Below, in pieces: positions 870 to 63,497 of a stretch of DNA of 64,000 nt. How positions within the stretch are numbered: the stretch's first letter is position 1; each line of letters begins with the position of its first letter. The notes below the pieces were generated by a model. The model had not been told where the DNA came from. It worked only from the letters and a program-made list of their open reading frames with translations, and made no database searches. This stretch comes from Candidatus Parcubacteria bacterium. GTDB taxonomy: Bacteria > Patescibacteriota > Minisyncoccia > Phycocordibacterales > JAKAEA01. The position numbers and the translations under genes were made by a program. The stretch lies in assembly GCA_963806325.1 (NCBI GenBank), contig CAWDXL010000016.1:4043-68042 (forward strand), written 5' to 3'.

Positions 870-2472
870 ATGAGTTTTGCAAAAGTTTCAAGCGCACAAG
901 CAAATCTCGTGCGCGCAACTATTATTTCTGTCGAAGTGGACCTTTCAAAAGGCTTGCATGCGTTTGCGATAGTTGGCTTGCCCGATAAAGGGGTAGAGGA
1001 ATCAAAAGATAGAATTTGTGCGGCAATAAAAAATTCCGGCTTCACTTCGCCAAAAAGTAAGAATCAAAAAGTTGTTATATCACTTGCACCTGCTGATATC
1101 AAAAAAGAAGGACCGAGTTTTGATGTGCCCATGGCTCTTGCGTATCTTTTGGCATCTGATGAAATCAGGTTTGATCCGGATAAAAAATTATTTCTTGGCG
1201 AACTATCCCTTGATGGAGAACTGCGGCCAGTGTCGGGTGTTTTGCCGCTCGCGCGAGAAGCTAGTCTTGCCGGTTTCACTGAAATTTACGTACCAGAAGC
1301 CAACGCCCGAGAAGCTGCACTCATTTCGACAATCACGGTATATGGAGTAAAAACTCTTCGAGATCTTATCCGTCATATAAATGAAAAGAAGTCCGCTCAG
1401 AATGAAGATCAACAAATGGGGGAAAGTAGTGAGGAAATGGGTGAAAAAGTACTGAGGATAAAAAGACTCGCTGTTCAACCGCCGACAAAAATTATAAAGG
1501 CACCCAGAGTGCCAGATGTAGATTTTTCTGATATCCATGGACAAGAAGGGGCAAAACGAGGGCTCGAGATTGCTGCTGCGGGAGGACACAATATTGCCAT
1601 GTATGGACCTCCCGGCACCGGCAAGACCATGCTTGCGAAAGCCTTCTCACACCTTCTGCCATCATTATCTTTTGAAGATATGCTTGAAGTAACTTCGATT
1701 CATTCGGTAGCAGGGATCGGCGGCGGAGATATTATTTCAGAGGCACCATTTCGAGCGCCGCATCACACGGCTTTATATATTTCAATTGTCGGCGGAGGTT
1801 CGATTTCCAAAACCGGGAGAAATTACGCTTGCTCATCGAGGCGTCCTATTTATGGATGAATTCCCCGAGTTTGATCGCAATGTAATTGATGCACTGCGCC
1901 AGCCGCTTGAGGATCATGTTATAACTATTTCCAGGGCTAGCGGTACAAGCACATTTCCCGCCCAGGTCATTCTTGTGGTCGCGATGAATCCCTGCCCATG
2001 CGGTAATTACGGCGTTGCCGGACGAAGCTGTTCATGTACACCGCTCTCGCTCGGCCGCTATCAGCGAAAAATTTCCGGCCCTATCATTGATCGGATCGAT
2101 CTGTGGACTGAGGTTTCTATCATTAATCACGCCATGCTCGCCGAGCGTACTCAAAAAACAGAAACGACCGAAATAATAAAAAACCGCGTCAAAAAAGCTC
2201 GCGATATTCAGGCTATGCGCTATAAAAACCATCCGCGCAACATTTCTATGAATGGAGAAATGAATGCCCGAGATATTCCGATATATGCAAATATTGAGCC
2301 CGAAGCGAAAAAGATCCTGTCATCATCAGCTGAACGCATGAATCTATCAGCTCGTGCGCATCATCGGCTCATTAAGCTTGCTCGAACCATCGCCGATCTT
2401 AGCAACAAAGAAAAAACCGATACTGAAGCAGTGCTCGAAGCGTTGCAATATCGGCCAAAAAGACTTGCCTAA
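870..2472 (+). CDS. comM: ComM/YifB-family Mg-chelatase-like AAA+ ATPase, reading frame broken once
   Basis: ORFs 870..1859 and 1786..2472 are two halves of one protein: the N-terminal Lon-like domain (VVISLAPADIKKEGPSFDVPMALAYLLA), Walker A GPPGTGKT, then PKPGEITLAHRGVLFMDEFPEF in the other frame. The frames join at the T-run 1804-1806 (VGGGSI / PKPGE). GGAGGG Shine-Dalgarno upstream of the ATG at 870. Confidence 0.85.
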
Positions 2473-2495
2473 AAAATTTAACTAAATTGACTAAG

Positions 2496-3593
2496 TTAAA
2501 AAGGATTGACTGGACCGTTGCGTATCTCAAAATGCACATGGCAGCCAGTCGCTTCGCCTGTTTCGCCCATAAGTCCAATTTGCTGGCCTTGAGCAACCGT
2601 ATCCCCTTCAGATACTGTGGGGTGCTCCATGTGAGCATAGAGTGTCTGCGAGCCGTTATTGTGGCTGATAACAACATAATTGCCGTAACCGCCGTTCCAG
2701 TCATTATCATCTTTACTGACAGTTACTGTACCTGCGGCAGAAGCATAAATAGAGGTGCCACACGAATCAGCTAGGTCGACGGCATTTTTACCGTGAATAC
2801 CCTGGGTTCTTTCGCCTCCTTTTATAGGCCTCATATAATATCCGTCAGCAAGCCCTGATACAACTATTTTAGAGGGAGCAGTTGAATCTTCAATAGAATT
2901 AGAACTTGAGGAAGATGAACCTGAAAATTCACCGTTTGGAACAACAATCACATCGCCAATGCTGAGTGTAGAATCCGGCATATTGTTGTATGCCATAATT
3001 TCCTGAACATCGCCCTTATATGTTGAAGCGATGCTCTGAAGAGTGTCGCCTTTTACCACCGTATGAGAAACTCCTGTAATAGGAAGGATTGTGAGTTTCT
3101 TGCCGGCCTTAAGAATACTTGTTTTGCGCAAATTATTTGCCCACAAGACAGTATTCACCGAAATTCCAAACTTTTGAGCTATACCGCTCACCGTATCGCC
3201 AGACACTACCGTATATGTTGAGATCTCATTATTTTGTGATAATGCACTTGTTTCATCTGAAGTTGTATCTGTAGAAGAAATGACTGTAGCAGCCTGAACA
3301 GTAGGTGCAACAGAAGGGGATGGAGATGTTTTTGGCAAAAGACCAGTAATTGCATTTATTGCATCAGCGGTATCCGTTGTTTGAGTAGATGTGGCAGTGG
3401 AAGACCCAAGAGGGTTGGCTGGTGCCTGAAGAAGCGGCATTTCTTGGGAATTTGGAGCAGAATCATCTGAAAAGGCGAGTACTGGAGTAACGCTAGAACC
3501 AAGCATTGAAGCCACATTTGAGAGAATGCTCGCTTCGGTAATATGAACACCATTAAGTATCGGCAATGGCACAACGAGCTGCACTGCAAGCAT
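2496..3593 (-). CDS. Secreted LysM-domain M23 (LytM-type) peptidoglycan endopeptidase
   Basis: Two LysM repeats (YTVVSGDTVSGIAQKFGISVNTVLWANNL; HTVVKGDTLQSIASTYKGDVQEIMAYNNM). C-terminal M23 signature GIHGKNAVDL ... YGNYVVISH ... TGEATGCHVHFEI. The N-terminal TM helix continues in frame upstream of the listed Met, so the start is uncertain. Confidence 0.85.
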   Translation of the reverse strand: MLAVQLVVPLPILNGVHITEASILSNVASMLGSSVTPVLAFSDDSAPNSQEMPLLQAPANPLGSSTATSTQTTDTADAINAITGLLPKTSPSPSVAPTVQAATVISSTDTTSDETSALSQNNEISTYTVVSGDTVSGIAQKFGISVNTVLWANNLRKTSILKAGKKLTILPITGVSHTVVKGDTLQSIASTYKGDVQEIMAYNNMPDSTLSIGDVIVVPNGEFSGSSSSSSNSIEDSTAPSKIVVSGLADGYYMRPIKGGERTQGIHGKNAVDLADSCGTSIYASAAGTVTVSKDDNDWNGGYGNYVVISHNNGSQTLYAHMEHPTVSEGDTVAQGQQIGLMGETGEATGCHVHFEIRNGPVNPF

Positions 3594-31149: not shown

Positions 31150-31643
31150 CTATATTATCGTGTGGATAACGTTGCTAATGTGGCAAAAAAAAGCCAACCC
31201 TATCGCTATCGCATCATACTCGTCATCAAATTTAATCTTCTTTTTGATTGCGATAAGTTTTGGAACCATGCCGATAATCTGGTGTTTATCGCTTTGTCCG
31301 TGGCCGGTAACCGCTATTTTAATAGCGCCCGGCTCATCTCATGCACGGCAAGGTGTTGCAATGATGCGGTAGCAAGAATTGCCCCGCGCGCTTCGGCGAC
31401 AAGCATGGCCGTCTTCTGATTTTTGCTGAAAAAAAGCGTTTCTATCGCAAGCGCTTCCGGTGCAAATTCTGCAATAAGCCGCAGCACCTCGCTTGAGACA
31501 TGCGCCAATCGCTCATGGTGGGGAAGATTTTTTGAAGTTTGAATGCAGGCGGAGTATATGAGCTGCTCTTTACCTTTTTTTTCTTTCTCCAAAATCGCGA
31601 CGCCAAGGCGCTCATACCCCGGATCAATTGCAATAATTCTCAT
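31150..31643 (-). CDS. ruvC: Holliday junction resolvase RuvC, reading frame broken once
   Basis: MRIIAIDPGYERLGVAIL (catalytic Asp), then EALAIETLFFSKNQKTAMLVAEARG. After ..AVHEMS the protein continues in another frame as PGAIKIAVTGHGQSDKHQIIGMV ... DEYDAIAIGLAF, stopping at 31150-31152. The junction is at the CCCGG run 31328-31332. Confidence 0.8.
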
Positions 31644-32174
31644 TATTCGGCATTCGTAAAATACTTCCTGTACCTCATCATTTGCTTCGAGGTCTTCTAT
31701 GACTTCATTGAGCTTTTGCCCGTCTTCATCGGAAATCTCTGCTTTTGTCTGCGCTATCCAGCCTTCGTGGGTTTTTTCAAATGCCCAGGTAGCCGCGCCC
31801 ATTGCAGCGAGTGTAAATCCATGATTTGAGAGAATATGTTTTATTTCCTGTGCCGCTTTATTTCTGTTATCGGTCAATGCTTCAATGACGAGTGCACAGC
31901 CGCCAGGACCGTAGGCTTCGTAGGTAATATTTTCCATCTGCGCGGAATTGTCGGTCGTGGCTTTTTTAATGGCACGGTTGATGGTGTCATTCGGCATATT
32001 TTCTTCCTTTGCTTTTTTAATGGCTGCGGCCAAGCCGGGGGAAGTGACATTGCCCCCAGATTTCTTTGCTTCAACGGTAATATAACGGACTATTTTTCCA
32101 AATGCCTTACTTTTCTCAGCGTCTGACGAACCCTTTTGCCGCTTAATCTTTGACCATTTGTTGTGTCCTGACAT
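31644..32174 (-). CDS. yebC: YebC/PmpR-family transcriptional regulator, read as an in-frame fusion to ruvC in the sequence as given
   Basis: MSGHNKWSKIKRQKG .. NMPNDTINRAIKK .. YEAYGPGG. As written, the frame runs without a stop into the ruvC ATG (..EVFYECRIMRIIAIDPG). Removing one A from the run 31658-31661 gives ..EVFTNAE-stop, with TAATG overlap on the ruvC start. Confidence 0.8.
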
Positions 32175-33237: not shown

Positions 33238-33553
33238 TAAAATTGTTTTATGCTAGTATACAAACATCGCTCAACAGGGCATTATATGCCCCGCTGAGCT
33301 CGCTTTTTTCCGCTTTATAGTTCTCTAGGCAAACGGCCCCAAAGCTCTATAGCATTTTATCGAGGATGGTATGGTTGCCACTCCGGTGTGCGTACTGTTC
33401 CAGCACCTTAGAAAAATGTTTAACTTTTAATCCAGTATTAAAAGTATTGCCTAGAGAATTATGCAGCGGATTTTTGCTATCTGCTGCCTCTCCATACTAT
33501 GCTTTCCCTTGAAAGACACAACTCCACGAAGGGGATATTTTGTTTTGTGGTAT

Positions 33554-33596
33554 AAAAAAATTGGATATCACAATTTTCGATATCCAATTTTTTATA
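33554..33596 (-). terminator. Rho-independent terminator downstream of pilB
   Basis: Perfect 11-bp stem AATTGGATATC (33559-33569) pairing with GATATCCAATT (33579-33589). It is flanked by A7 and T6 runs, so it could work in both directions. Confidence 0.75.
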
Positions 33597-33631
33597 TTAT
33601 CCCTCCAAATCAACAACGCGCTCAAGCTCGC

Positions 33632-41267: not shown

Positions 41268-41272
41268 ATATG

Positions 41273-41344
41273 TGCTCCCAGCAGGAATCGAACCTGCATC
41301 ACGAGCTTCGGAGGCCCGTACTCGATCCATTAAGCTATGAGAGC
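41273..41344 (-). tRNA. tRNA-Arg (anticodon CCG)
   Basis: Manual cloverleaf: GCTCTCA TA GCTT AATGGATC GAGT A CGGGC CTCCGAA GCTCG TGAT GCAGG TTCGATT CCTGC TGGGAGC A. 72 nt; CCA is not encoded. Confidence 0.85.
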
Positions 41345-51989: not shown

Positions 51990-53558
51990 CTATAACGTTT
52001 CAGCCCACTCGCTTTCGTTATAGTCGGAGCGATGATCCCTGAAGAGCTGGTGTGCTCGCCGAAAGATGTCTAGAGCTTTCTTGTGTCCAAGCCCATGCTC
52101 CATGCCATATCGCAAGACGCGGTACACAGACTCGACCTTGAGATTTTCGGCGATCTCTGCTGGTTTGTGTGCCTCCATCCATTCCCAGCCGAGGAGTGTC
52201 AGTTCGGTAGTTGGGAGTGAATTGATCTCCTGTCGGATTTCCGCACTCATTAGGTCGTTCACCCAGTCGATCTGAAGGGTATTAATGAGCGCCTTGCCGA
52301 GGACGAAACAAGCACGATAGAAGGCGTAGTCGTCGGGCCAGACTTTGGTTTCCCACTGTCTGACGAGGTGACGGAATCCTGCAATTCGCCACTGTACGCT
52401 TTTTCGGTATGCGCGCTCATGAACTTCATGGGGGACACCGGGGCGACGCGCCAAATGCTTGGCCGGATCGGCATCGCAGTTGGTGAGGACGCGCCCATCC
52501 CGAGTAATCGGATTTGGGTATTGCGCCAACAGATAGTCGATCGCTTCGATGGTTTTCTCCACAGGCAAATTGCTGTCCGTGAATACGTCCATCTGCTCGA
52601 CCGCTTTTCTGTTGTTGTCGCAATATTTACACATGAATTTCAATAAGGGTCCCAAATCCTCCGAAGAGGAAATGAAGTTGCCTCCTGGGGTGCCGTCGGT
52701 TCTGGCTCCCCAGATAATGGAACCTTGGACAAAATCCCAGATGCGCAACCCTTCGTGCTCAATACCAATTATCTTGCAAATACCCTTGGCACGGACGAGT
52801 CCATGCTTTTGGTAGAGATTTACGAGGACCGGCACAAGTATCGTTTCATCAATACCTTCAGCAAATTCCACGCTCGTCGCGTGGATCGGCACATGATGAT
52901 GGTGATCATGGGTATAAGAATGCTTGTGGTCGGCGTGGCTATCATGGTCATGGGTGTGGCCACAAGTCTTGCAAACCTTATCACCACCTCCGTCTTCCAA
53001 AAGACTCTCCAGCCGCGGCATCTCATCTTCTAGGAGAATCTGAATTGGGGCTCCGGAAAAGCGTCCGATATACTCGAGCACTGGCGCAAGTTTGGAATCC
53101 GAGAGGCTGCTTACCCCTTCGGCCCACGTGAGCCCGATCCTTGTTGCCGCTGGGAGCTGGAACTGCTCCACTCCAATTGTCCGGTTGAGTTCAAAATGCT
53201 GGACGTCGATCAGGCACAGGCAGTGCCAGTCGAAACCAAGCTTTTTGGCCATGCTGCGGATCGTTGTGGCGTCAGCGATGCCGGTTGGCTCAATGATGAC
53301 GAAGCCAATCCCGGTCCTTTCGGCTACTTCTTCGAGCGTGCGCTTGAGCACTCCCGCTGACTCGCAACAGACACACCCCGTAGTAAGGGGAAGCACTTCT
53401 CCCACCGAACTGACGCGCGATGCGTCTATGTTGGTTGTCCCCACATCGTTTACGATGCAGAGAGCAGTAATATGCCTTGTGGCGACCTGATTTAGGATTT
53501 GGTTGAGACGCGTGGTTTTGCCTGAGCCAAGTGGCCCTGAAATCACCAAAATGCGCAT
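51990..53558 (-). CDS. COG0523/CobW-family G3E GTPase (putative zinc metallochaperone) with a ~220-aa uncharacterised C-terminal extension
   Basis: Start chosen at MRILVISGPLGSGKTT (AAGGAGAA Shine-Dalgarno upstream). CxCC motif TGCVCCES, and a His-rich linker HTHDHDSHADHKHSYTHDHHHHVP. The CobW_C-like segment is followed by about 220 further residues with no recognised motif. Confidence 0.75.
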   Translation of the reverse strand: MRILVISGPLGSGKTTRLNQILNQVATRHITALCIVNDVGTTNIDASRVSSVGEVLPLTTGCVCCESAGVLKRTLEEVAERTGIGFVIIEPTGIADATTIRSMAKKLGFDWHCLCLIDVQHFELNRTIGVEQFQLPAATRIGLTWAEGVSSLSDSKLAPVLEYIGRFSGAPIQILLEDEMPRLESLLEDGGGDKVCKTCGHTHDHDSHADHKHSYTHDHHHHVPIHATSVEFAEGIDETILVPVLVNLYQKHGLVRAKGICKIIGIEHEGLRIWDFVQGSIIWGARTDGTPGGNFISSSEDLGPLLKFMCKYCDNNRKAVEQMDVFTDSNLPVEKTIEAIDYLLAQYPNPITRDGRVLTNCDADPAKHLARRPGVPHEVHERAYRKSVQWRIAGFRHLVRQWETKVWPDDYAFYRACFVLGKALINTLQIDWVNDLMSAEIRQEINSLPTTELTLLGWEWMEAHKPAEIAENLKVESVYRVLRYGMEHGLGHKKALDIFRRAHQLFRDHRSDYNESEWAETL

Positions 53559-53598
53559 AGCATTCTCCTTCTTGCTGATCGTCTTTGCTTGAATGTAC

Positions 53599-53665
53599 AT
53601 GCAACTAAGTTGCATTCCTGGGGGATACTATACACCACCATATTCATAATTGCAAATTACTTGCA
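53599..53665. promoter_or_regulatory. Two TGCAA-N5-TTGCA palindromes in the divergent promoter region (candidate Fur/Zur-family operators)
   Basis: ATGCAACTAAGTTGCAT (53599-53615, a perfect 8-1-8 palindrome) and TGCAAATTACTTGCA (53651-53665). Both lie between the COG0523 start (53558) and the Fur-family start (53685). Confidence 0.55.
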
Positions 53666-53684
53666 CATGTGATAATTTAAAGAT

Positions 53685-54101
53685 ATGAAATTAGACTACC
53701 GAAAGATGCTTAAAGAAGCCGCATTGAAGGTGACTCCTGTCCGTCTCGCTATCCTCAATTTGTTTTCAGAAGAGTGCAGGCCGCTGGATGCAGAATTCAT
53801 CCATTCAAAGTTAAGGAATAAAAATACTAATCTCGTGACGGTGTACCGGACCTTGACTTCACTTGAACAGGCTGGAGTCTTGAAACGCGTTGATTTGCAC
53901 ACAGACTCAGTTCACTATGAATTGACTGCTCATCATCACCATCATATTGTCTGCATACAATGTGGTGACATAGAAAGTTTTGAAATGTGCGACCTCGATG
54001 CATTCTCAAAAAGTATTCTCAAAAAATCTTCTAAGTTTAAACAAATAAACAACCATTCTTTTGAATTGTTTGGCATTTGCAAAATGTGCGTAAAAAAATA
54101 A
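53685..54101 (+). CDS. Fur-family metalloregulator (Zur-like by context)
   Basis: LKVTPVRLAILNLF (DNA-binding helix region), VYRTLTSLEQAGVL, HHHHHIVCIQCG and CKMC (CxxC pairs). 138 aa. Confidence 0.8.
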   Translation: MKLDYRKMLKEAALKVTPVRLAILNLFSEECRPLDAEFIHSKLRNKNTNLVTVYRTLTSLEQAGVLKRVDLHTDSVHYELTAHHHHHIVCIQCGDIESFEMCDLDAFSKSILKKSSKFKQINNHSFELFGICKMCVKK

Positions 54102-54350: not shown

Positions 54351-56676
54351 TTGAGTCATATGAAAAACTCCCGAAAAGGATTTATCATCCCTCTCCTAAT
54401 AATTGCAATTACACTGCTTGCCATCGGTGTCGGGGTATATGAGTACCACAAGGGCAAGACTTCAGCTCCAACACCGACTCAAACAACTACTATAGCAACC
54501 GCTCCTGTCTCTAACCAAAAAGACATCCTCGCCATCCTCGTATCTTTTCAGGATTCTAAACCAAACGCTAGTTCCGATACATACGCTAGCGTAAAAGCTA
54601 AGCTTGATGCAGTCAGTGCTTTCTATATAGAAAATGATTTAACCGGAGCATTCAAAGGCTTTACGTATGATATAACCCCCGGCTATGTTTCTACAGATTT
54701 CCATCAAGGCACTACCATTAACGTTAAACTTTTTAACGCAGCGGTTCAAGATGTTGAAAAACAGGCACAAAAAAAATATGGGTTCAACCCCTTGAACTAC
54801 AAATATATATATTTTATTACCCCGAAAGAGGTAAATTGTGGAGGTATCCTGGGATACTGTGTACCATCTACTCCGTTGGGATTTGATGATACTGGCACCT
54901 ATAGTAATCAAGCACTCCATGCCATATTTATCAATGGCCCCCAACCTACTTTGGTATATGCTCATGAATTAGGTCATGCACTTCCACAAGGTCTTCACCA
55001 TTTCGGAAGTTTAACGTGCGGCAAGAAAGATATTGACATTCTAAAGAATTGTTCCGGAACTAATTACAGTTACACCGTGATGGGTAATTTAGGGCTGACG
55101 CACCTCAGTGCTTATCAAAAAGAACGTATGGGGTACATCATTCCTGCTATGGAGCAAACAGTACTCAAAGATGGTATATACACTCTCACTCCCATTGAAA
55201 CACGAGCCGAAGGGTTAAAAGATTTGGCGGTTCAGTCTCCATCTGGAGGTTTGTATTATGTAGAGTATCGAACGCTATCTGGATTTGATACTGATTTCGA
55301 TCAACAAACATGGATAACTGAACCATATACAGGACTTGCCTTTGATGCGAATGGGAAAGCTACAAAAAATGATTCTGCGAATGCTCCCGAAGCACTTTTC
55401 TTAAAAAATCTCATCGATAATGGGGATATATTTACCGACGACCTTGACCCGATTGATATTTTAAAGATAACTGAAATGGCAAGTAATCCTACCACTGATA
55501 CCGTGAGTGTCACATTCAACAAAATGACTATCTCCGCCACCACTACCAATCAGGAAGCAAATCCTGTGCCCAAAGTCAGCGTTGTCCTTACCGATACTTC
55601 ATCAAAGCCATCTGTTACGTATACTGGCACCACAGACTCCAATGGCAATGTCCTTTTCAAAGATCTTGCCATGCTTAAATTCAAGGATACCTTCACCCTC
55701 AAGGCTTTGACTCCAGACTCGACAAAATACAAAGATTCTGACCCTGTTATTGTCACTACCAATGAGGATACTGATGACTATTCAGCTACTCTGAAGCTTA
55801 AAAGATGTGGCGAGCAGCACGCCTCCAACATTTAGTTTGAGCGGAGATGTGTTTAATAATTCAGTTGGCGTTTCAACATGGGATCCTAATTGCATCCCCA
55901 ACACGCCATATTCTGCAATTCTTTCAGGTAAGAATATTCCAAGCGGTAATTATACCTACGCAATAACACTCTATGGTACAGCTCTTGATAATTACAATGA
56001 TAGCAATGATGTTCCCTTTGCTCCATCCTCCTTTAAAAATATACAGCTAGCAACCGCAAACACTAATTCAATGCCGTTCAATACAACAATAACGGTTAAA
56101 AGTATAGTCGCACCCAGAGATTTTGAATACGACATGTTTTCTAATGGGGTTGAGGAGTATGATAATCCATTTGCTGTCATAGACGCATTTATAGATGGCA
56201 AGGATACCGGTCATTTATCGCACTATCAACTTATATATGAAAATGCCTATGGAGTTATTGCGGTGTATGCCAAAATTGTCATGAAAGATTCAAAAGGAAA
56301 CATTATAGGTACCTTCTATACATCTAACCATAATATTGACACGAGCAATACACAATCCAATAAAGAGGCTACTTATATACCTACTCTTTATCCTGCAGAC
56401 GCCAAAATATGCGGCACTGCATTTGCTCCAACGCCCTTCGGTCCTGCTAACACTGATGGTTATGGATCAATCGATGCCACTACGATTTATTATGATTTAA
56501 ATCAGGCTCCCGGTGTTCTCCTCAAAACAACTCAGCAAACATGGTGTGCTGAGTACAGTGCTTTAATGGGAGGAATAAAAGGGGATTGGGTGTTAATTAA
56601 AAATAAACGTCATTTCTGTAAATGCTCGATTCCTGTTGGGGTCAATCCAAAACACGACTCTAGGCAACACTTCTGA
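54351..56676 (+). CDS. Secreted HExxH zinc-metalloprotease-like protein, probably one ~770-aa gene broken by one frameshift
   Basis: 54351..55835 has an N-terminal TM, VYAHELGHAL (HExxH), and a C-terminal carboxypeptidase-regulatory-like beta domain (VSVVLTD..TGTTDSNGNVLFKDL). 55807..56676 opens right after a TGA in the +1 frame. Removing one A from the run 55800-55803 reads ..ATLKLKDVASSTPPTFSLSG... Confidence 0.6.
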
Positions 56677-56907: not shown

Positions 56908-56935
56908 TTGACACACATGAGGCACCTGCTATAAT
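56908..56935 (+). promoter_or_regulatory. Consensus sigma-70-type promoter
   Basis: TTGACA (56908-56913), a 16-nt spacer, then TATAAT (56930-56935). Both hexamers are perfect. Confidence 0.65.
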
Positions 56936-56940
56936 AGTAC

Positions 56941-57425
56941 GGTGCTCATGTCCCTCGGAGCAGGAGAGATTTTAGAGGGAGACCGATGTATGTTAAGTGT
57001 TCGTGACAAAAGTTAATAGCGAAAGCAAAAAGCTCTAGTGACGGATGCTTGCAGGGTCGAAAGACTTTGCAGGTTGCAGGGTTGTAAGCGGGTAACCGTT
57101 TTCGACCTCAAGCATCGGTCAGTGGGGCTTTTTTAGTGCCTTGCCAACAGCACCTGATGCTATCGGTGATTGTGCGGAGGGCGCTTAGAATAATTCTCGT
57201 TGGTTAACCCCTCTGCAACGAGCAGTTACTGGTCTGCAAAATCAGGAACGCCATGTCAATAAAAAACATAGGCGGCTGTATCTCTCTCACATGTCGCCGA
57301 GTCAATGGACGATGGGTCTGTGAGCCGACATACAGACGAAGAAACCCTAGACCAATTAAAGTCTAAGGTTTCTAAATCCAGAGGAGACGGCCTTCTTGAA
57401 AGGGAGCCGTCTTTTCTGTTTTTGT
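56941..57425 (+). ncRNA. Candidate structured non-coding RNA of unknown class (~480 nt)
   Basis: Lies between a consensus promoter and a terminator (AGACGGC 57385-57391 pairing with GCCGTCT 57406-57412, then a T-run). Hairpins found by hand: 56952-56979 (CCCTC/GAGGG); 57039-57121 (TGACGGATGCTTG/CAAGCATCGGTCA plus an inner AGGGTCGAAA/TTTCGACCT); 57196-57222 (CTCGTTG/CAACGAG); 57249-57274; 57276-57335; 57341-57372 (12-bp stem, 1 mismatch). Only a 60-aa ORF is present, and it runs through the terminator. Confidence 0.5.
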
Positions 57426-57620
57426 GTATGGTAATTATATCAACTGTATCCGTATCCGCATTAATTTCTGGGGATAACTTACTATGAATCCACTATATTA
57501 ATCATGAATAAATAAAAGTCAACCTCTTACGAGTTTCTCCTTTAAATACCTACTTTTTTGTATAGTGTGCATAACTCTTCAATAAAGCAATAGTTGTTTG
57601 ACACGTCGTGATATATAATT

Positions 57621-58205
57621 ATGATAAAGATTCTAGAAATGTCCGGAAGCACCCCTATAATTTTTTATGTAGATGCCCGTGTCCTGCTTGTGGGCATGTC
57701 TGTCTTTTTTCTCGCACTTCTTGCTTTGGTTTGGAAGGGAAGAAAAGAAATAGAAGAAATTATTGATAATAAAATTGGTAACCTAAGCAACAGTGCTCCT
57801 AAATTAATCAGTGCCATTATTGAACTACAGGCCATTATATCCACAAAAGTAAAGGGTGTAATTGTTAGCCAATCTTTAGTAGAAACTACGGGTAGTCCGC
57901 TGGCCCCAACAGAGTTTGGTGCAGAGTTAATTAAAAAAAGTGGTTTGGAAAAAGTGCTTAACGAGAACAAGGAAGATTTTTGTATAAAACTGAGAGCAGT
58001 GTTGCCTAAAGAATATACAGAGTATGATGTTCAGGAACATGCTAGAAATTTGCTTGTCAATCTTAAAGATGATTCTATTATGAATCCTGTAAAAGAGTAT
58101 GTTTATAATAATCCAGTAGATATTGAAATTATTTTAAAAGCCGGAGGTCTTTGGTTGAGAGATGACTTCTTGAATAAGCCGAGACAAATTAATACTAATA
58201 AGTAA
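57621..58205 (+). CDS. Membrane-anchored hypothetical protein
   Basis: 194 aa with one N-terminal TM (LLVGMSVFFLALLALVW) and a soluble C-terminal domain. No motif recognised. Its stop abuts repeat R2b. Confidence 0.5.
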   Translation: MIKILEMSGSTPIIFYVDARVLLVGMSVFFLALLALVWKGRKEIEEIIDNKIGNLSNSAPKLISAIIELQAIISTKVKGVIVSQSLVETTGSPLAPTEFGAELIKKSGLEKVLNENKEDFCIKLRAVLPKEYTEYDVQEHARNLLVNLKDDSIMNPVKEYVYNNPVDIEIILKAGGLWLRDDFLNKPRQINTNK

Positions 58206-59220: not shown

Positions 59221-60183
59221 CTATATTTGTTGGTTCCAGCAGCCAGAATTATTATTACTGCAGAGGTGTGACATGTAACTACTCGAGAAATTGCTGAGAG
59301 TATTGCTTGGCATGCTATTCTCTTGCAGAAATGAGGCAATGATATTGAAGGCGGTGATGGCACTCTGCATATCTCCGTTAGCATTATTATAGTGATATTC
59401 ACCGCTATTACCCTCAGTGCTATCATACCCGCTCTGATATTCAGAGGCTGCATTGTTAAAATTAGATGATGCAGTTATGAGGCTTTGAGTAATATTTTGA
59501 TACGCAGCGCCTTTATAATTGTACTCATTGGCTAGATTCGAAGCATCTGTATTTGCGGGAATCAAATCAAGGGCAGCAGCGCTATTATCGATAAAAGGGT
59601 CTGGAAATTTTTGAGTAAGACTTTCTCGAGCTTGTTCCATTTGGTCATAACCATCCATTATCTTGAAATAGATATTTTTTACCGCACTCTCAAAGGCAGC
59701 ATCATTAATTGGTGCCAGTACTGTTACAGAGGAGGTTGGAGTAGCAGTTCCAGGCCCAGAGTGACATGGTGCACCCGTAATCGTGTTATACATGTCTCCA
59801 GGCGAGGCACAAGGGGTAGAAGTAGTGGTTGTTTGTGTTGCGGGTATAGTGGTATCCATTGCACTAGTGGAACTTTGTATTGTTGAAGATGAAGTACTTG
59901 TGCCAAGATGCATATTGATATAAGCACGGGTAATTGCACCGAAGTATCCGGATGCAGGTGCAATGCCAGCAATGGTTTGATATACAGCTACGGCAGTTTG
60001 TGTTAATGCACCAAAATATCCTGTTGGTTGAGCATTAAGAAGACCTTTTGAGATTAAATATTGTTGAAGTTGTGTTACTTCCGGCCCAGAGCTTCCTGTA
60101 GAGAGATTTGTATTAAAATCCGCAAGAGTTACAAACGGAATAAATGCTACTACGGCTACTAGGAGAATAGCTAATTTTTTCAT
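59221..60183 (-). CDS. Secreted protein with tandem PG_binding_1-like segments
   Basis: Start chosen at MKKLAILLVAVVAFIPFVTLA (60183). Contains GPEVTQLQQYLISKGLLNAQPTGYFGALTQTAVAVYQTIAGI and a second GYFGAITRAYI. No catalytic motif recognised. Confidence 0.6.
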   Translation of the reverse strand: MKKLAILLVAVVAFIPFVTLADFNTNLSTGSSGPEVTQLQQYLISKGLLNAQPTGYFGALTQTAVAVYQTIAGIAPASGYFGAITRAYINMHLGTSTSSSTIQSSTSAMDTTIPATQTTTTSTPCASPGDMYNTITGAPCHSGPGTATPTSSVTVLAPINDAAFESAVKNIYFKIMDGYDQMEQARESLTQKFPDPFIDNSAAALDLIPANTDASNLANEYNYKGAAYQNITQSLITASSNFNNAASEYQSGYDSTEGNSGEYHYNNANGDMQSAITAFNIIASFLQENSMPSNTLSNFSSSYMSHLCSNNNSGCWNQQI

Positions 60184-60417
60184 GGAAATTATTTTTTCTA
60201 ATAATCCCAGTGATGGAGTACAAAAAGCCCACCACATGAGTAGAGGCCGAAGCCTCTCATACCAGTTTCCTAGTATGGCCAAGCAGGACACCCCATATGA
60301 TGGGTTTTTTATCCTGCTTGGACTCTTTTCACCATGCCAGCAATTGCTTACTGGTTTAGGCTACTTACTTATTAAATTGTCATTTGACTATACAACAGAA
60401 AGAGTATAATCACAACC

Positions 60418-61083: not shown

Positions 61084-61385
61084 TCCGAGTCGGAAGTGAG
61101 TCGGCAGCAGAAAAGCTACGCTTATGACAGCCTGTTTTTTATTTGGAGAAATGTGAACACCAACAAGAAAGCCTGTTGCTCTCTTGGCAGATGCCTTTTG
61201 GCGTTCACAGTCTGCCAAGTGAGGAGCGGGCTTCTTTGTGTCAGAAGAAGCTCAAAATCAACAGAATAAAGATGAACAGTCTCTTAGTCGAGAAGAGATT
61301 ATTCATCTTGCAAAGATTTTTGATTTGTTGGCTTTGGCTGAGAGAGAATTAGAAGCAAATAACAAGAAGTCTAACGATATATAAA

Positions 61386-61793
61386 ATGGATATTATTTCA
61401 CAAGATTGGTTTCAGGCTCTCGTTGAAGAAATGTCTGCGACCATAACAGAGCGAAGTTTTAACGCTCGATGGGAGACAGTACAGTGCTATCACGAGATTG
61501 GAACAGCAATTCTTAAAGAAAATGACAACTTTGAGAGATGTAAAATTTATGGTCAACAGATTGTGCAGACCGTTGCAGAGTTTTTGAATAAAAAACCGCG
61601 AGTCATATACTATGCCGTACAATTTGCAAAGATGTTTCCGGACATAGATTCTCTGAAGGAAGGGAAAAATGTTAGCTGGTCAAAAATATGCAAAGAGATA
61701 TTGCCTCGTCATTCTACAGATTGCTCCCATGCAGAGCGTGAAAAAGTGACGATTGAAATATGCAAGAAATGTAAAAAGAAAATAATAGAATAA
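61386..61793 (+). CDS. Hypothetical protein (weak resemblance to DUF1016 N-terminal-type phage/plasmid proteins)
   Basis: 135 aa: WFQALVEEMSATITERSFNARWETVQCYHEIGTAILKE ... YGQQIVQTVAEFL. A C-terminal Cys cluster CSHAE..CKKCKKK. Weak call. Confidence 0.4.
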   Translation: MDIISQDWFQALVEEMSATITERSFNARWETVQCYHEIGTAILKENDNFERCKIYGQQIVQTVAEFLNKKPRVIYYAVQFAKMFPDIDSLKEGKNVSWSKICKEILPRHSTDCSHAEREKVTIEICKKCKKKIIE

Positions 61794-61873: not shown

Positions 61874-63463
61874 ATGGAAATAAAACCTAAATCAATCATA
61901 TATGCCCGTGTCTCTTCACGGGAACAGGAATCCGGATACTCACTAGATTCTCAGAAAAAATTATTGAATGAGTATGCTGAGACTCATCGCCTTAAGGTTG
62001 TCAAAGTGTTTTCCGTGTCTGAATCTGCAAATGGGAAAAAGCAACGAGAAACATTTACTGAAATGATGAGTTTTGCTGTTAAAAATGATATTAAACATAT
62101 CCTTTGTGAAAAAACAGACCGTCTTACCCGCAACTTTAAAGATGCGGTATCTGTTGATGAGTGGGTTAACTCTAACGGGGAAAGGAGAGTGCATTTCGTG
62201 AAAGAGAATATGATTCTGCACCGAGATGCAAAATCTAATGAGAAGTTTATATGGAGTATAAAAGTTTCTGTCGCGCAGTACTATATAAATAACTTATCTG
62301 AAGAGGTAAAAAAGGGTTTACTTGGAAAATTGGAAGCCGGTTATCTACCGTATCAACCAAAGTTTGGGTATAAGAGTGCTAAACAAGATGGTAAAAATAT
62401 CCATGTTATAGATGAAAATGAAGCCGTGTTTATTGTGCGCATATTTGATATGTATTCGACGGGCAATTATTCTATCAATATTCTTAGGAAGAAATTGTTT
62501 GATGAAGGGATGAGAACTCGTCACGGCAAGAACATGTCTATAAGTAGAATAGCGGCTATTCTTGGTGACCCTTTCTACTATGGAGCATTACCCTGGAAGG
62601 GTGGAATACATGAACAACCAGGTAAGCATACTCCACTGGTATCACGTGAGCTGTATGACAAGGTTCAACTTATTTTAAGTGGTAAGGGTGCACCTAAACA
62701 TAGCAAACATACCTTTCCTTTTAGAAAGCTTTTGTTGTGCGCGAATTGTGGCGGCACCATGACTGGTGAATTACAGAAAGGGAATATTTATTACAGATGC
62801 AAGGGTTACGGTGGTTGTATGGTAAAAAGCTCAATCCGAGAGGATGATATTGAAAAGCAGATATTGGCCTCCTTTGAAATTTTTAGGAAGCTGTCTGATA
62901 AGGAGAGGGAAGAAGTAAGACAAGCCGTCCTTGACCTGCATAAAGAAGATTCTCAGTTTCGTGAAAAGTCATTAGCGAAGCTAACAACCGAACGTCAGAC
63001 TCTTGAGAGTCAGCGTGATACTCTCTATGAAGATAGGTTAGCTCAGCGTATTTCTATTGAAAAATGGCAAGTTAAAGATATGGATTATGAGTTTCGTATC
63101 AAGCAAGTAGAAGCTGCTATTGCTAAGCAGAGTGATGAGCAGACCAAATATTTTAAAGTTGGCTCAAGTCTTGTTGATTTAGCATTTAAAGCCGAGAAAC
63201 TTTATAAAGCATTGAATCCCGAGAAGCGCCGAGAATTGCTCAAGCTAATTTTCGCGAACCTCAAAGTTAACGGTAAAAAAGTCATATTTAGCTTCGTAAA
63301 ACCAGTAGAGAAACTGGTTGAGCGTATTAAGGAACGATTACAGCTAGAATTCATTTCCGAACTCAAGAAAGATGTTGCAGTACCTACGCTAAATCAATTT
63401 CCAGAACTCTTTTATTCTATAGTGTCCGCCCAGCAGGAATCGAACCTGCGACCATCTCCTTAA
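61874..63463 (+). mobile_element. Large serine recombinase (integrase) gene
   Basis: Resolvase-type N-terminus IIYARVSSREQESGYSLDSQ (nucleophile Ser) ... EKTDRLTRN, then a recombinase domain. A zinc ribbon CANCGG..YYRCKGYGGC is followed by a long coiled coil. The last 39 nt of the ORF overlap the 3' end of tRNA-Lys on the opposite strand. Confidence 0.85.
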
Positions 63464-63497
63464 AAGGGAGCTGCTCTACCATCTGAGCTATGGGCGG
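63425..63497 (-). tRNA. tRNA-Lys (anticodon UUU)
   Basis: Manual cloverleaf: CCGCCCA TA GCTC AGATGGTA GAGC A GCTCC CTTTTAA GGAGA TGGTC GCAGG TTCGATT CCTGC TGGGCGG A. 73 nt. The C1-G72 pair and a G-A mismatch at the top of the anticodon stem are slightly unusual. Confidence 0.8.

Follow-up and report, generated by a model that had tools for sequence, protein, structure and literature searches.

Positions 56942 to 57425 of a 64,000-nt stretch of a Candidatus Parcubacteria genome (contig CAWDXL010000016.1; the whole stretch is hereafter called the window) appear to encode a structured non-coding RNA (ncRNA) of about 480 nt. In our reading, to which we give a probability of roughly 55%, this unit is a stand-alone, lineage-specific gene on the + strand, the RNA of which acts in trans. 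The unit exists and is not due to chance, and it qualifies as a reasonable candidate for a structured ncRNA gene that is so far unclassified. Genomes of the Candidate Phyla Radiation (CPR, Patescibacteria) are tiny and contain little non-coding DNA, and almost no ncRNAs have been described from them. Hence, a non-coding unit of about 0.5 kb behind what is apparently the strongest promoter in 64 kb represents a real investment. It probably reflects a function overlooked by annotation centred on proteins, the public record having a 55-aa hypothetical protein in this place. A first-pass annotation, made from the letters of the window, had already described an unclassified ncRNA in an accessory region beside a recombinase-bearing element; the structure and the absence of an Rfam family stood up to analysis, but the connection with the recombinase did not.

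The unit is framed by a promoter and a terminator on the same strand:

56908 to 56935, + strand: sigma-70-type consensus promoter (12/12 in the promoter scan, plus TG; unique in the window).
56942 to 57425, + strand: putative non-coding transcript of ~484 nt (folding energy, GC content, broken reading frames, no Rfam family).
57379 to 57425, + strand: intrinsic terminator, a 17-pair hairpin at 57379-57418 (-23.3 kcal/mol) followed by UUUUCUGUUUUUG to 57425 (pair probabilities, folding).

The hexamers TTGACA (56908-56913) and TATAAT (56930-56935) are separated by a 16-nt spacer and match the consensus in all 12 positions, just as they had been read in the first pass. An extended -10 TG is present at 56927-56928, one base before the -10 hexamer, and an AT-rich, UP-like tract lies directly 5' of the promoter. 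A search of both strands of the window found no other perfect TTGACA-N16-18-TATAAT, with 0.06 expected from shuffled sequence. The upstream open reading frame (ORF) stops at 56676 and an AT-rich spacer separates it from the promoter at 56908. Transcription would start near G56941/56942. At the other end, the terminator hairpin with its T-run was confirmed by folding, although a consensus terminator scanner missed it, which we attribute to the bulged stem and to the scanner's limits on stem and loop. No structure is predicted in the 215 nt that separate the terminator from the next gene (z +0.1), and that gene has its own promoter (11/12, 57598-57625); the unit is therefore separate from it. 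With a GC content of 47.9%, above that of its flanks (34% and 30%) and of the window (42%), the unit also forms a GC island. The promoter scan and the folding of the terminator thus support the discrete promoter-to-terminator unit that was originally proposed.

The predicted RNA is extremely structured. The minimum free energy of the 484-nt unit is -193.2 kcal/mol, compared to -145 +/- 6 kcal/mol for dinucleotide shuffles (z -7.68), and none of 100 shuffles folded as well, in agreement with the earlier description of a unit packed with hairpins. When the window was tiled with 200-nt segments, the mean z was -0.2 +/- 1.2 and a tile within the unit had the lowest energy of all. One other tile, 31842-32041, had appeared extreme with 20 shuffles (z -6.7) and fell to -1.1 with 100; it was dismissed as noise in the YebC/RuvC coding region.

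The anatomy of the fold was taken from ensemble pair probabilities and is a thermodynamic prediction. A closed core is predicted from 56946 to 57315, tied by two long-range helices (P1 and P2) and followed by hairpins on the 3' side:

56946 to 56969, + strand: 5' strand of P1, pairing with 57281-57315 in three segments, ~23 bp in all (p 0.89, 0.93 and 0.57).
57281 to 57315, + strand: 3' strand of P1 (pair probabilities).
56973 to 56988, + strand: 5' strand of P2, UAGAGGG.GACCGAUG, pairing with 57198-57215 (p 0.90 and 0.99).
57198 to 57215, + strand: 3' strand of P2 (pair probabilities).
56997 to 57026, + strand: small hairpin enclosed by P1 and P2 (pair probabilities).
57027 to 57133, + strand: 107-nt branched hairpin enclosed by P1 and P2 (-59 kcal/mol, p ~0.95).
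57135 to 57185, + strand: hairpin domain of ~50 nt enclosed by P1 and P2, holding AGCACC (p 0.97; inner helix 57147-57158:57162-57173, p 0.92).
57249 to 57274, + strand: hairpin between the 3' strands of P2 and P1, burying the ATG (57253) of a 37-aa ORF (p 0.97).
57316 to 57337, + strand: first 3' hairpin past P1 (p 0.89).
57340 to 57373, + strand: 12-pair hairpin with one C/A mismatch (p 0.98).

All hairpins named in the first-pass annotation are present in this ensemble. The 12-bp stem with one mismatch, placed there at 57341-57372, is the last hairpin of the list, and the long hairpin reported at 57039-57121 exists but forms only the inner part of the branched hairpin at 57027-57133. A closure of a ~215-nt domain by GGTGCT (56941-56946) and AGCACC (57150-57155) had also been suggested. 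The two motifs are indeed complementary, but this is not the favoured fold, since AGCACC sits in the local helix 57147-57158:57162-57173 and the core is closed by P1 and P2 instead. Co-folding of the 5' and 3' parts yields a gain of -32 kcal/mol, compared to -17 +/- 6 kcal/mol for shuffles. The branched hairpin contains three UGCAGG repeats (57050-57055, 57068-57073 and 57075-57080) and, at 57087-57100, a hairpin with a GUAA tetraloop. Overlapping the 3' strand of P2, CUCGUUG (57196-57202) and CAACGAG (57217-57223) could form an alternative local hairpin or a pseudoknot.

Any set of inverted repeats folds above chance on the reverse strand too, and the - strand of the unit also beats its shuffles (z -5.2). 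This would be expected of an element acting at the DNA level, such as a recombination site, a single-strand origin, a MITE-like (miniature inverted-repeat transposable element) palindromic insertion or the edge of an integrated element. A large serine recombinase gene that abuts tRNA-Lys only 4.4 kb away and other intergenic gaps that are palindrome-rich on both strands would fit such an element as well. However, the + strand folds to -193 kcal/mol with 25 G-U pairs and the - strand to -156 kcal/mol with 10, a difference of 37 kcal/mol. In the inner segment of P2, three of eight pairs are G-U, leaving C/A mismatches on the opposite strand, so that this helix exists in + strand RNA only. Moreover, the ends of the unit coincide with a perfect promoter and a terminator, no second copy was found in the window or among plasmid and phage records, and terminal inverted repeats of the MITE type were not detected. 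The strand difference, the G-U counts and the orientation of promoter and terminator therefore speak for an RNA from the + strand rather than a palindrome acting at the DNA level, and we consider a DNA-level element very improbable.

A single RNA of full length is not the only transcript that can be imagined. The base of the branched hairpin is an A5/U5 helix that runs into a U-run (57129-57134), and together they may act as an internal, partial terminator. In that case two nested products would be made, a small RNA of ~190 nt (56942 to ~57134) and, by read-through, the 480-nt form, the 3' half of which would then not belong to a single functional fold. The position of the hairpin between AAAAA and UUUUUU resembles a bidirectional terminator, and the promoter scan predicted no + strand promoter between 56935 and 57598. 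A branched stem of 45 bp with ~100 nt between its arms would nevertheless be a non-canonical terminator, and the first 48 nt of the RNA pair best with 57198-57315 (p 0.57-0.99 over five segments), an arrangement that needs the full length. In addition, the GC island and the high degree of structure continue to 57425. Nested products are hence unlikely.

Coding capacity was analyzed next to the fold. All six frames of the unit are broken, with a longest stop-free run of 78 codons. The ORF of 60 aa at 57305-57487 (55 aa from a later start in the public annotation) ends 62 nt past the terminator and lacks a Shine-Dalgarno sequence, and its hydrophobic C-terminus is encoded by the U-run of the terminator and the AT-rich spacer behind it. 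The first-pass annotation was right about the missing Shine-Dalgarno sequence and the read-through, but it had taken this ORF to be the only one: an ORF of 37 aa (57253-57366) and several further ones of 32-33 aa are also present. The 37-aa product is basic and contains Cys, and AGGA is found 5 nt before its ATG, which is buried in a hairpin; the ORF contains the 12-bp hairpin and the 3' strand of P1. Its resemblance to ribosomal protein L36 was noticed, but Pfam gave no support, nor did Pfam return anything significant for six small ORFs (best E 0.064). The region of the 37-aa ORF had no match among 1.84 billion representative proteins and that of the 60-aa ORF matched only itself among 5.8 billion clusters. 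In an independent Logan assembly, the gene caller calls no gene at the unit. The broken frames and the lack of protein homologues support the earlier view that the unit has no credible coding capacity, and we found nothing that would support a small-protein gene.

A structured mRNA for a small protein must still be considered, either with the 37-aa ORF behind a leader or attenuator of ~310 nt or as a type I toxin mRNA similar to hok (55/60-aa ORF). In hok mRNA, the 5' and 3' ends fold back on each other in an inhibitory manner, and the end pairing of the unit resembles this. Like hok-type toxin mRNAs, the unit has a length of ~400-500 nt, extreme structure, a 5' end paired with the 3' region and a small ORF with a buried start, so that the SD-like AGGA and the hidden ATG recall a silenced toxin message; the annotation of the metagenome-assembled genome (MAG) also calls the 55-aa ORF. 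Unlike these mRNAs, the unit has a hydrophobic ORF that overruns its terminator, no homology to a toxin family and no convincing antisense RNA gene, the antisense promoter-like sites being weak (9-10/12) and without a matching terminator. A coding sequence that has no homologues in either protein collection and, in the case of the 37-aa ORF, must accommodate a 12-bp hairpin and one strand of P1 makes a small-protein mRNA improbable.

Known RNA families were searched with Rfam 15, as the first-pass annotation had advised. At the gathering threshold only LOOT and two tRNAs were found in the whole window, hence no family for the unit. With E <= 10 and all 4227 families, a 1.1-kb region and the 495-nt unit gave three chance-level matches, Spy1186876 (23.8 bits compared to a gathering score of 208), NsiR9 and mir-2007. 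ARAGORN found no transfer-messenger RNA (tmRNA) in the window. Both results support the earlier statement that signatures of known families are missing.

Individual classes were rejected on further grounds. For RNase P RNA (RF00010/RF00011) no match was obtained at E <= 10, the P4 strands GGAAAGUCC and ACAGAA...GGCUUA are absent and the order of helices is incompatible, in particular the two hairpins between the 3' strands of P2 and P1. A tmRNA combines a tRNA-like domain (7-bp acceptor stem, GGUUCGAAUCC-like T-arm) with a tag reading frame. The unit has neither an Rfam match to tmRNA nor a T-loop, and P1, with ~23-24 bp, misfits the acceptor stem. The 6S RNA is a rod of ~180-200 nt in which a closing stem and a terminal stem flank a large central bubble; the unit is without an Rfam match to it and is predicted to form a multi-branch core of 370 nt, not a rod. 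ROOL, GOLLD, OLE, raiA and HEARO gave no covariance-model match at the gathering threshold or at E <= 10. A riboswitch or attenuator leader is contradicted by the missing aptamer match, the strong terminator, the unstructured 215 nt and the separate promoter of the downstream gene.

It may be argued that a universal or known RNA (RNase P RNA, tmRNA, 6S, signal recognition particle RNA or a ROOL/GOLLD/OLE-type RNA) has diverged so far in the CPR that Rfam does not see it. CPR sequences are divergent, and a strong promoter, a length of 370-480 nt, paired ends and GNRA loops are typical of housekeeping and ornate RNAs. The chance-level scores at E <= 10, the ARAGORN result and the lack of the P4 and T-loop motifs render this extremely improbable.

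A guide-like or element-maintenance role, which had been suggested for the RNA, is likewise not supported. Among the Pfam-annotated ORFs between 33.6 and 63.5 kb there are no genes for reverse transcriptase, Cas, TnpB/IscB or IS110-type proteins. Retron msr-msd, IS110 bridge RNA, TnpB/IscB omega RNA and tracrRNA were consequently rejected, each for want of an adjoining partner protein gene. For the neighbours of the unit, PADLOC reported only a weak candidate-defence match (PDC-S02) in a DUF1016 fragment (61386-61793), PHROGs only endolysin-like matches in a PG_binding protein, and NCBIfam nothing bearing on the unit.

Relatives of the RNA were sought in several ways. BLASTN in distant mode gave no match among 50,697 phage records and 72,556 plasmids, and BLASTN and nhmmer found nothing like the unit in seven distinct contexts of the protein family encoded directly downstream (the 188-aa family, see below). 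Exact-word scans, which detect near-identical relatives only, gave seed matches alone: nine for one 18-mer in GTDB representative genomes, 21 for one 17-mer in JGI metagenomes and 0-4 for each of seven 16-18-mers in IMG/VR. A covariance model of 57027-57185 matched only itself in the window and seven Parcubacteria loci. The window belongs to a MAG contig of 142,907 bp, and its sequence is also present in the Logan assembly of ERR10755936, 100% identical over the unit. The nearby large serine recombinase has no relatives in IMG/VR. When 15 billion proteins are clustered at 90% identity, this recombinase, a Fur-family regulator and the two local ORFs each form a singleton, which means that the lineage has been sampled essentially just once. 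That RNA homology can be detected at this evolutionary distance is evident from another element of the same genome, upstream of ruvB, for which a match was found in a syntenic Parcubacteria locus.

Several points weigh against a stand-alone ncRNA gene. BLASTN, synteny, k-mer scans and the covariance model all failed to reveal an RNA homologue, and the structure is a thermodynamic prediction only. The long-range complementarity of P1 and P2 is only moderately above that of shuffles (about 2.6 standard deviations). Structured gaps are common in this genome: of the 11 intergenic gaps scored, three reach z <= -5 on one strand or both (two gaps of more than 600 nt, including that of the unit, were outside the count). 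As ~30% of the scored gaps are strongly structured, a high z alone does not mark a special function. The public MAG annotation places a 55-aa hypothetical protein at 57320-57487 (P0066). Finally, both the transcript and its abundance are deduced from sequence. Despite these points, all four rival explanations set out above are less likely than a stand-alone ncRNA.

If the unit is such a gene, the extended -10 consensus promoter, the strongest-looking of the window, would drive it and the RNA would be made in large amounts. It would also be stable, because its ends are paired. We propose that the RNA acts in trans, in a structural or protein-binding capacity of the scaffold or sponge type, and would be neither an mRNA nor a cis-regulator of the next gene. 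It would be lineage-specific and accessory rather than a universal housekeeping RNA. The only hints of a structural or protein-binding role, both of them weak, are the GNRA loops and the UGCAGG repeats, at which a protein could bind.

The proposed ncRNA shares features with several known systems. Like ROOL, GOLLD, OLE and raiA (PMC12286853, PMC5737381), it is stand-alone, non-coding and several hundred nt long, with a multi-helix junction, numerous hairpins and GNRA-type loops, and lies in a variable neighbourhood near a tRNA and an integrase. It differs from them in that no covariance model matches and no family of homologues is available from which a conserved core could be defined. A strong constitutive promoter, paired ends and a repeated short motif (the three UGCAGG in one hairpin) are also reminiscent of 6S RNA and of sponges of the CsrB/RsmZ type. 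However, the unit lacks the rod with a central bubble of the former and the GGA array in hairpin loops of the latter, and has no Rfam match to either. It is conceivable, if quite unlikely, that the unit is the founding member of a new class of large ornate RNAs with tertiary structure, confined to one lineage of Patescibacteria and with the standing of ROOL, GOLLD or OLE. Such an RNA would be present at a very high level and form an RNA-protein or RNA-only assembly, and its relatives would have escaped the exact-word scans through divergence or poor sampling. Were the RNA conserved, it would provide the phylum with a new class of large structured RNA; were it truly an orphan, it would be a lineage-specific RNA innovation and hard to study.

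The genes around the unit offer few clues. On the 5' side two secreted-looking proteins are encoded, and the upstream protein of 289 aa is an orphan that matched only itself. A few kb further upstream (51990-54101), the gene of the Fur-family regulator is divergent from genes of the other strand that encode a CobW/COG0523-like GTPase and a DIT1/PvcA-like protein; the group may be a metal-starvation cluster of the Zur type. Immediately 3' of the unit (57639-58205, + strand) lies the gene for the membrane-anchored protein of 188 aa. It has 64 homologues (P0001-P0064), which belong to Parcubacteria or Komeilibacteria where named. The family is Parcubacteria-wide, with proteins of ~190 aa that have an N-terminal transmembrane helix, an all-alpha domain and 20 invariant residues, and it is matched by no Pfam, NCBIfam, PADLOC or PHROG entry. 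An AlphaFold model of the 188-aa protein (pLDDT 81) consists of the transmembrane helix and the all-alpha domain and has no fold match in the PDB. The protein was considered as a partner of the RNA and rejected, as neither the model nor the family searches gave any hint of RNA binding.

The 188-aa gene is followed by genes for a membrane protein and a PG_binding protein, the latter behind a LOOT leader, by two ORFs of unknown nature and the DUF1016 fragment, and then, 4.4 kb from the unit, by the large serine recombinase, the only recombinase in the Pfam annotation from 33.6 to 63.5 kb. Within 61874-63497, the recombinase gene shares its 3'-terminal 40 nt with the 3' part of tRNA-Lys(UUU). Since homologues of the 188-aa protein lie among housekeeping genes in other Parcubacteria genomes, the unit is not obviously inside a recombinase-bearing element. 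Nothing links it to recombination, and the tie to this element made in the first pass was abandoned. The tRNA-Lys (63429-63449) and tRNA-Arg(CCG) (41277-41297; gene 41272-41344) share 21 identical nt in the T-arm and acceptor, which could be ordinary tRNA similarity or the trace of an integration.

The LOOT RNA (RF03000) was found at 60242-60362 (- strand; 85 bits) in the window and at 2413-2533 (+ strand; 80 bits) in the Parcubacteria locus L006, each time immediately 5' of a gene. In the window this gene encodes a PG_binding_1 protein (59221-60183, - strand). Such a placement suits a 5' leader that acts in cis rather than a free small RNA.

Other gaps of this and related genomes are structured as well. 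The gap at 33238-33631 (z -7.1 on the + strand, -6.0 on the - strand; no Rfam family) contains the ruvB-upstream RNA at about 33270-33500 on the + strand, with a TTGACA...TGCTAGTAT promoter-like site, a length of ~190 nt and a closing helix of ~22 bp. Over a core of 56 nt, it matches an element 5' of ruvB in the syntenic locus L004 (3640-3860, z -6.1) with 77% identity (E 4e-5). This RNA resembles the 56942-57425 unit in its TTGACA ... TGC-TAnnAT promoter style, its long 5'/3' closing helix and the lack of an Rfam family. In contrast, it is shorter, has a detectable homologue and shows no sequence similarity to the unit; it is the better candidate for covariation analysis. Strong structure on both strands (z -5.6 and -5.0) is also predicted for the gap at 61084-61385, which separates an ORF of 221 aa from the DUF1016 fragment.

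Structured, Rfam-negative elements were further observed 5' of genes of the 188-aa family, at 960-1175 of L006 (z -8.2), 1777-2013 of L048 (z -8.1) and 3240-3500 of L003 (z -4.0), with no sequence similarity among themselves or to the unit. A positional pair of an RNA and the 188-aa protein was considered and dismissed: these gaps share no sequence with the unit, the L004 element belongs with ruvB, the L052 gap is unstructured and the base rate of structured gaps is ~30%. The presence of several structured gaps, at least one of them conserved, suggests that a systematic survey of Parcubacteria ncRNAs would pay off.

Two further features of the window were noted. Between 39000 and 41250, only ORF fragments of ~100 aa are present on both strands, an apparent case of gene decay. 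An ORF of 286 aa (31314-32174) combines YebC/TACO1 and RuvC domains, which are encoded by separate genes in L004, and thus appears to be a fusion.

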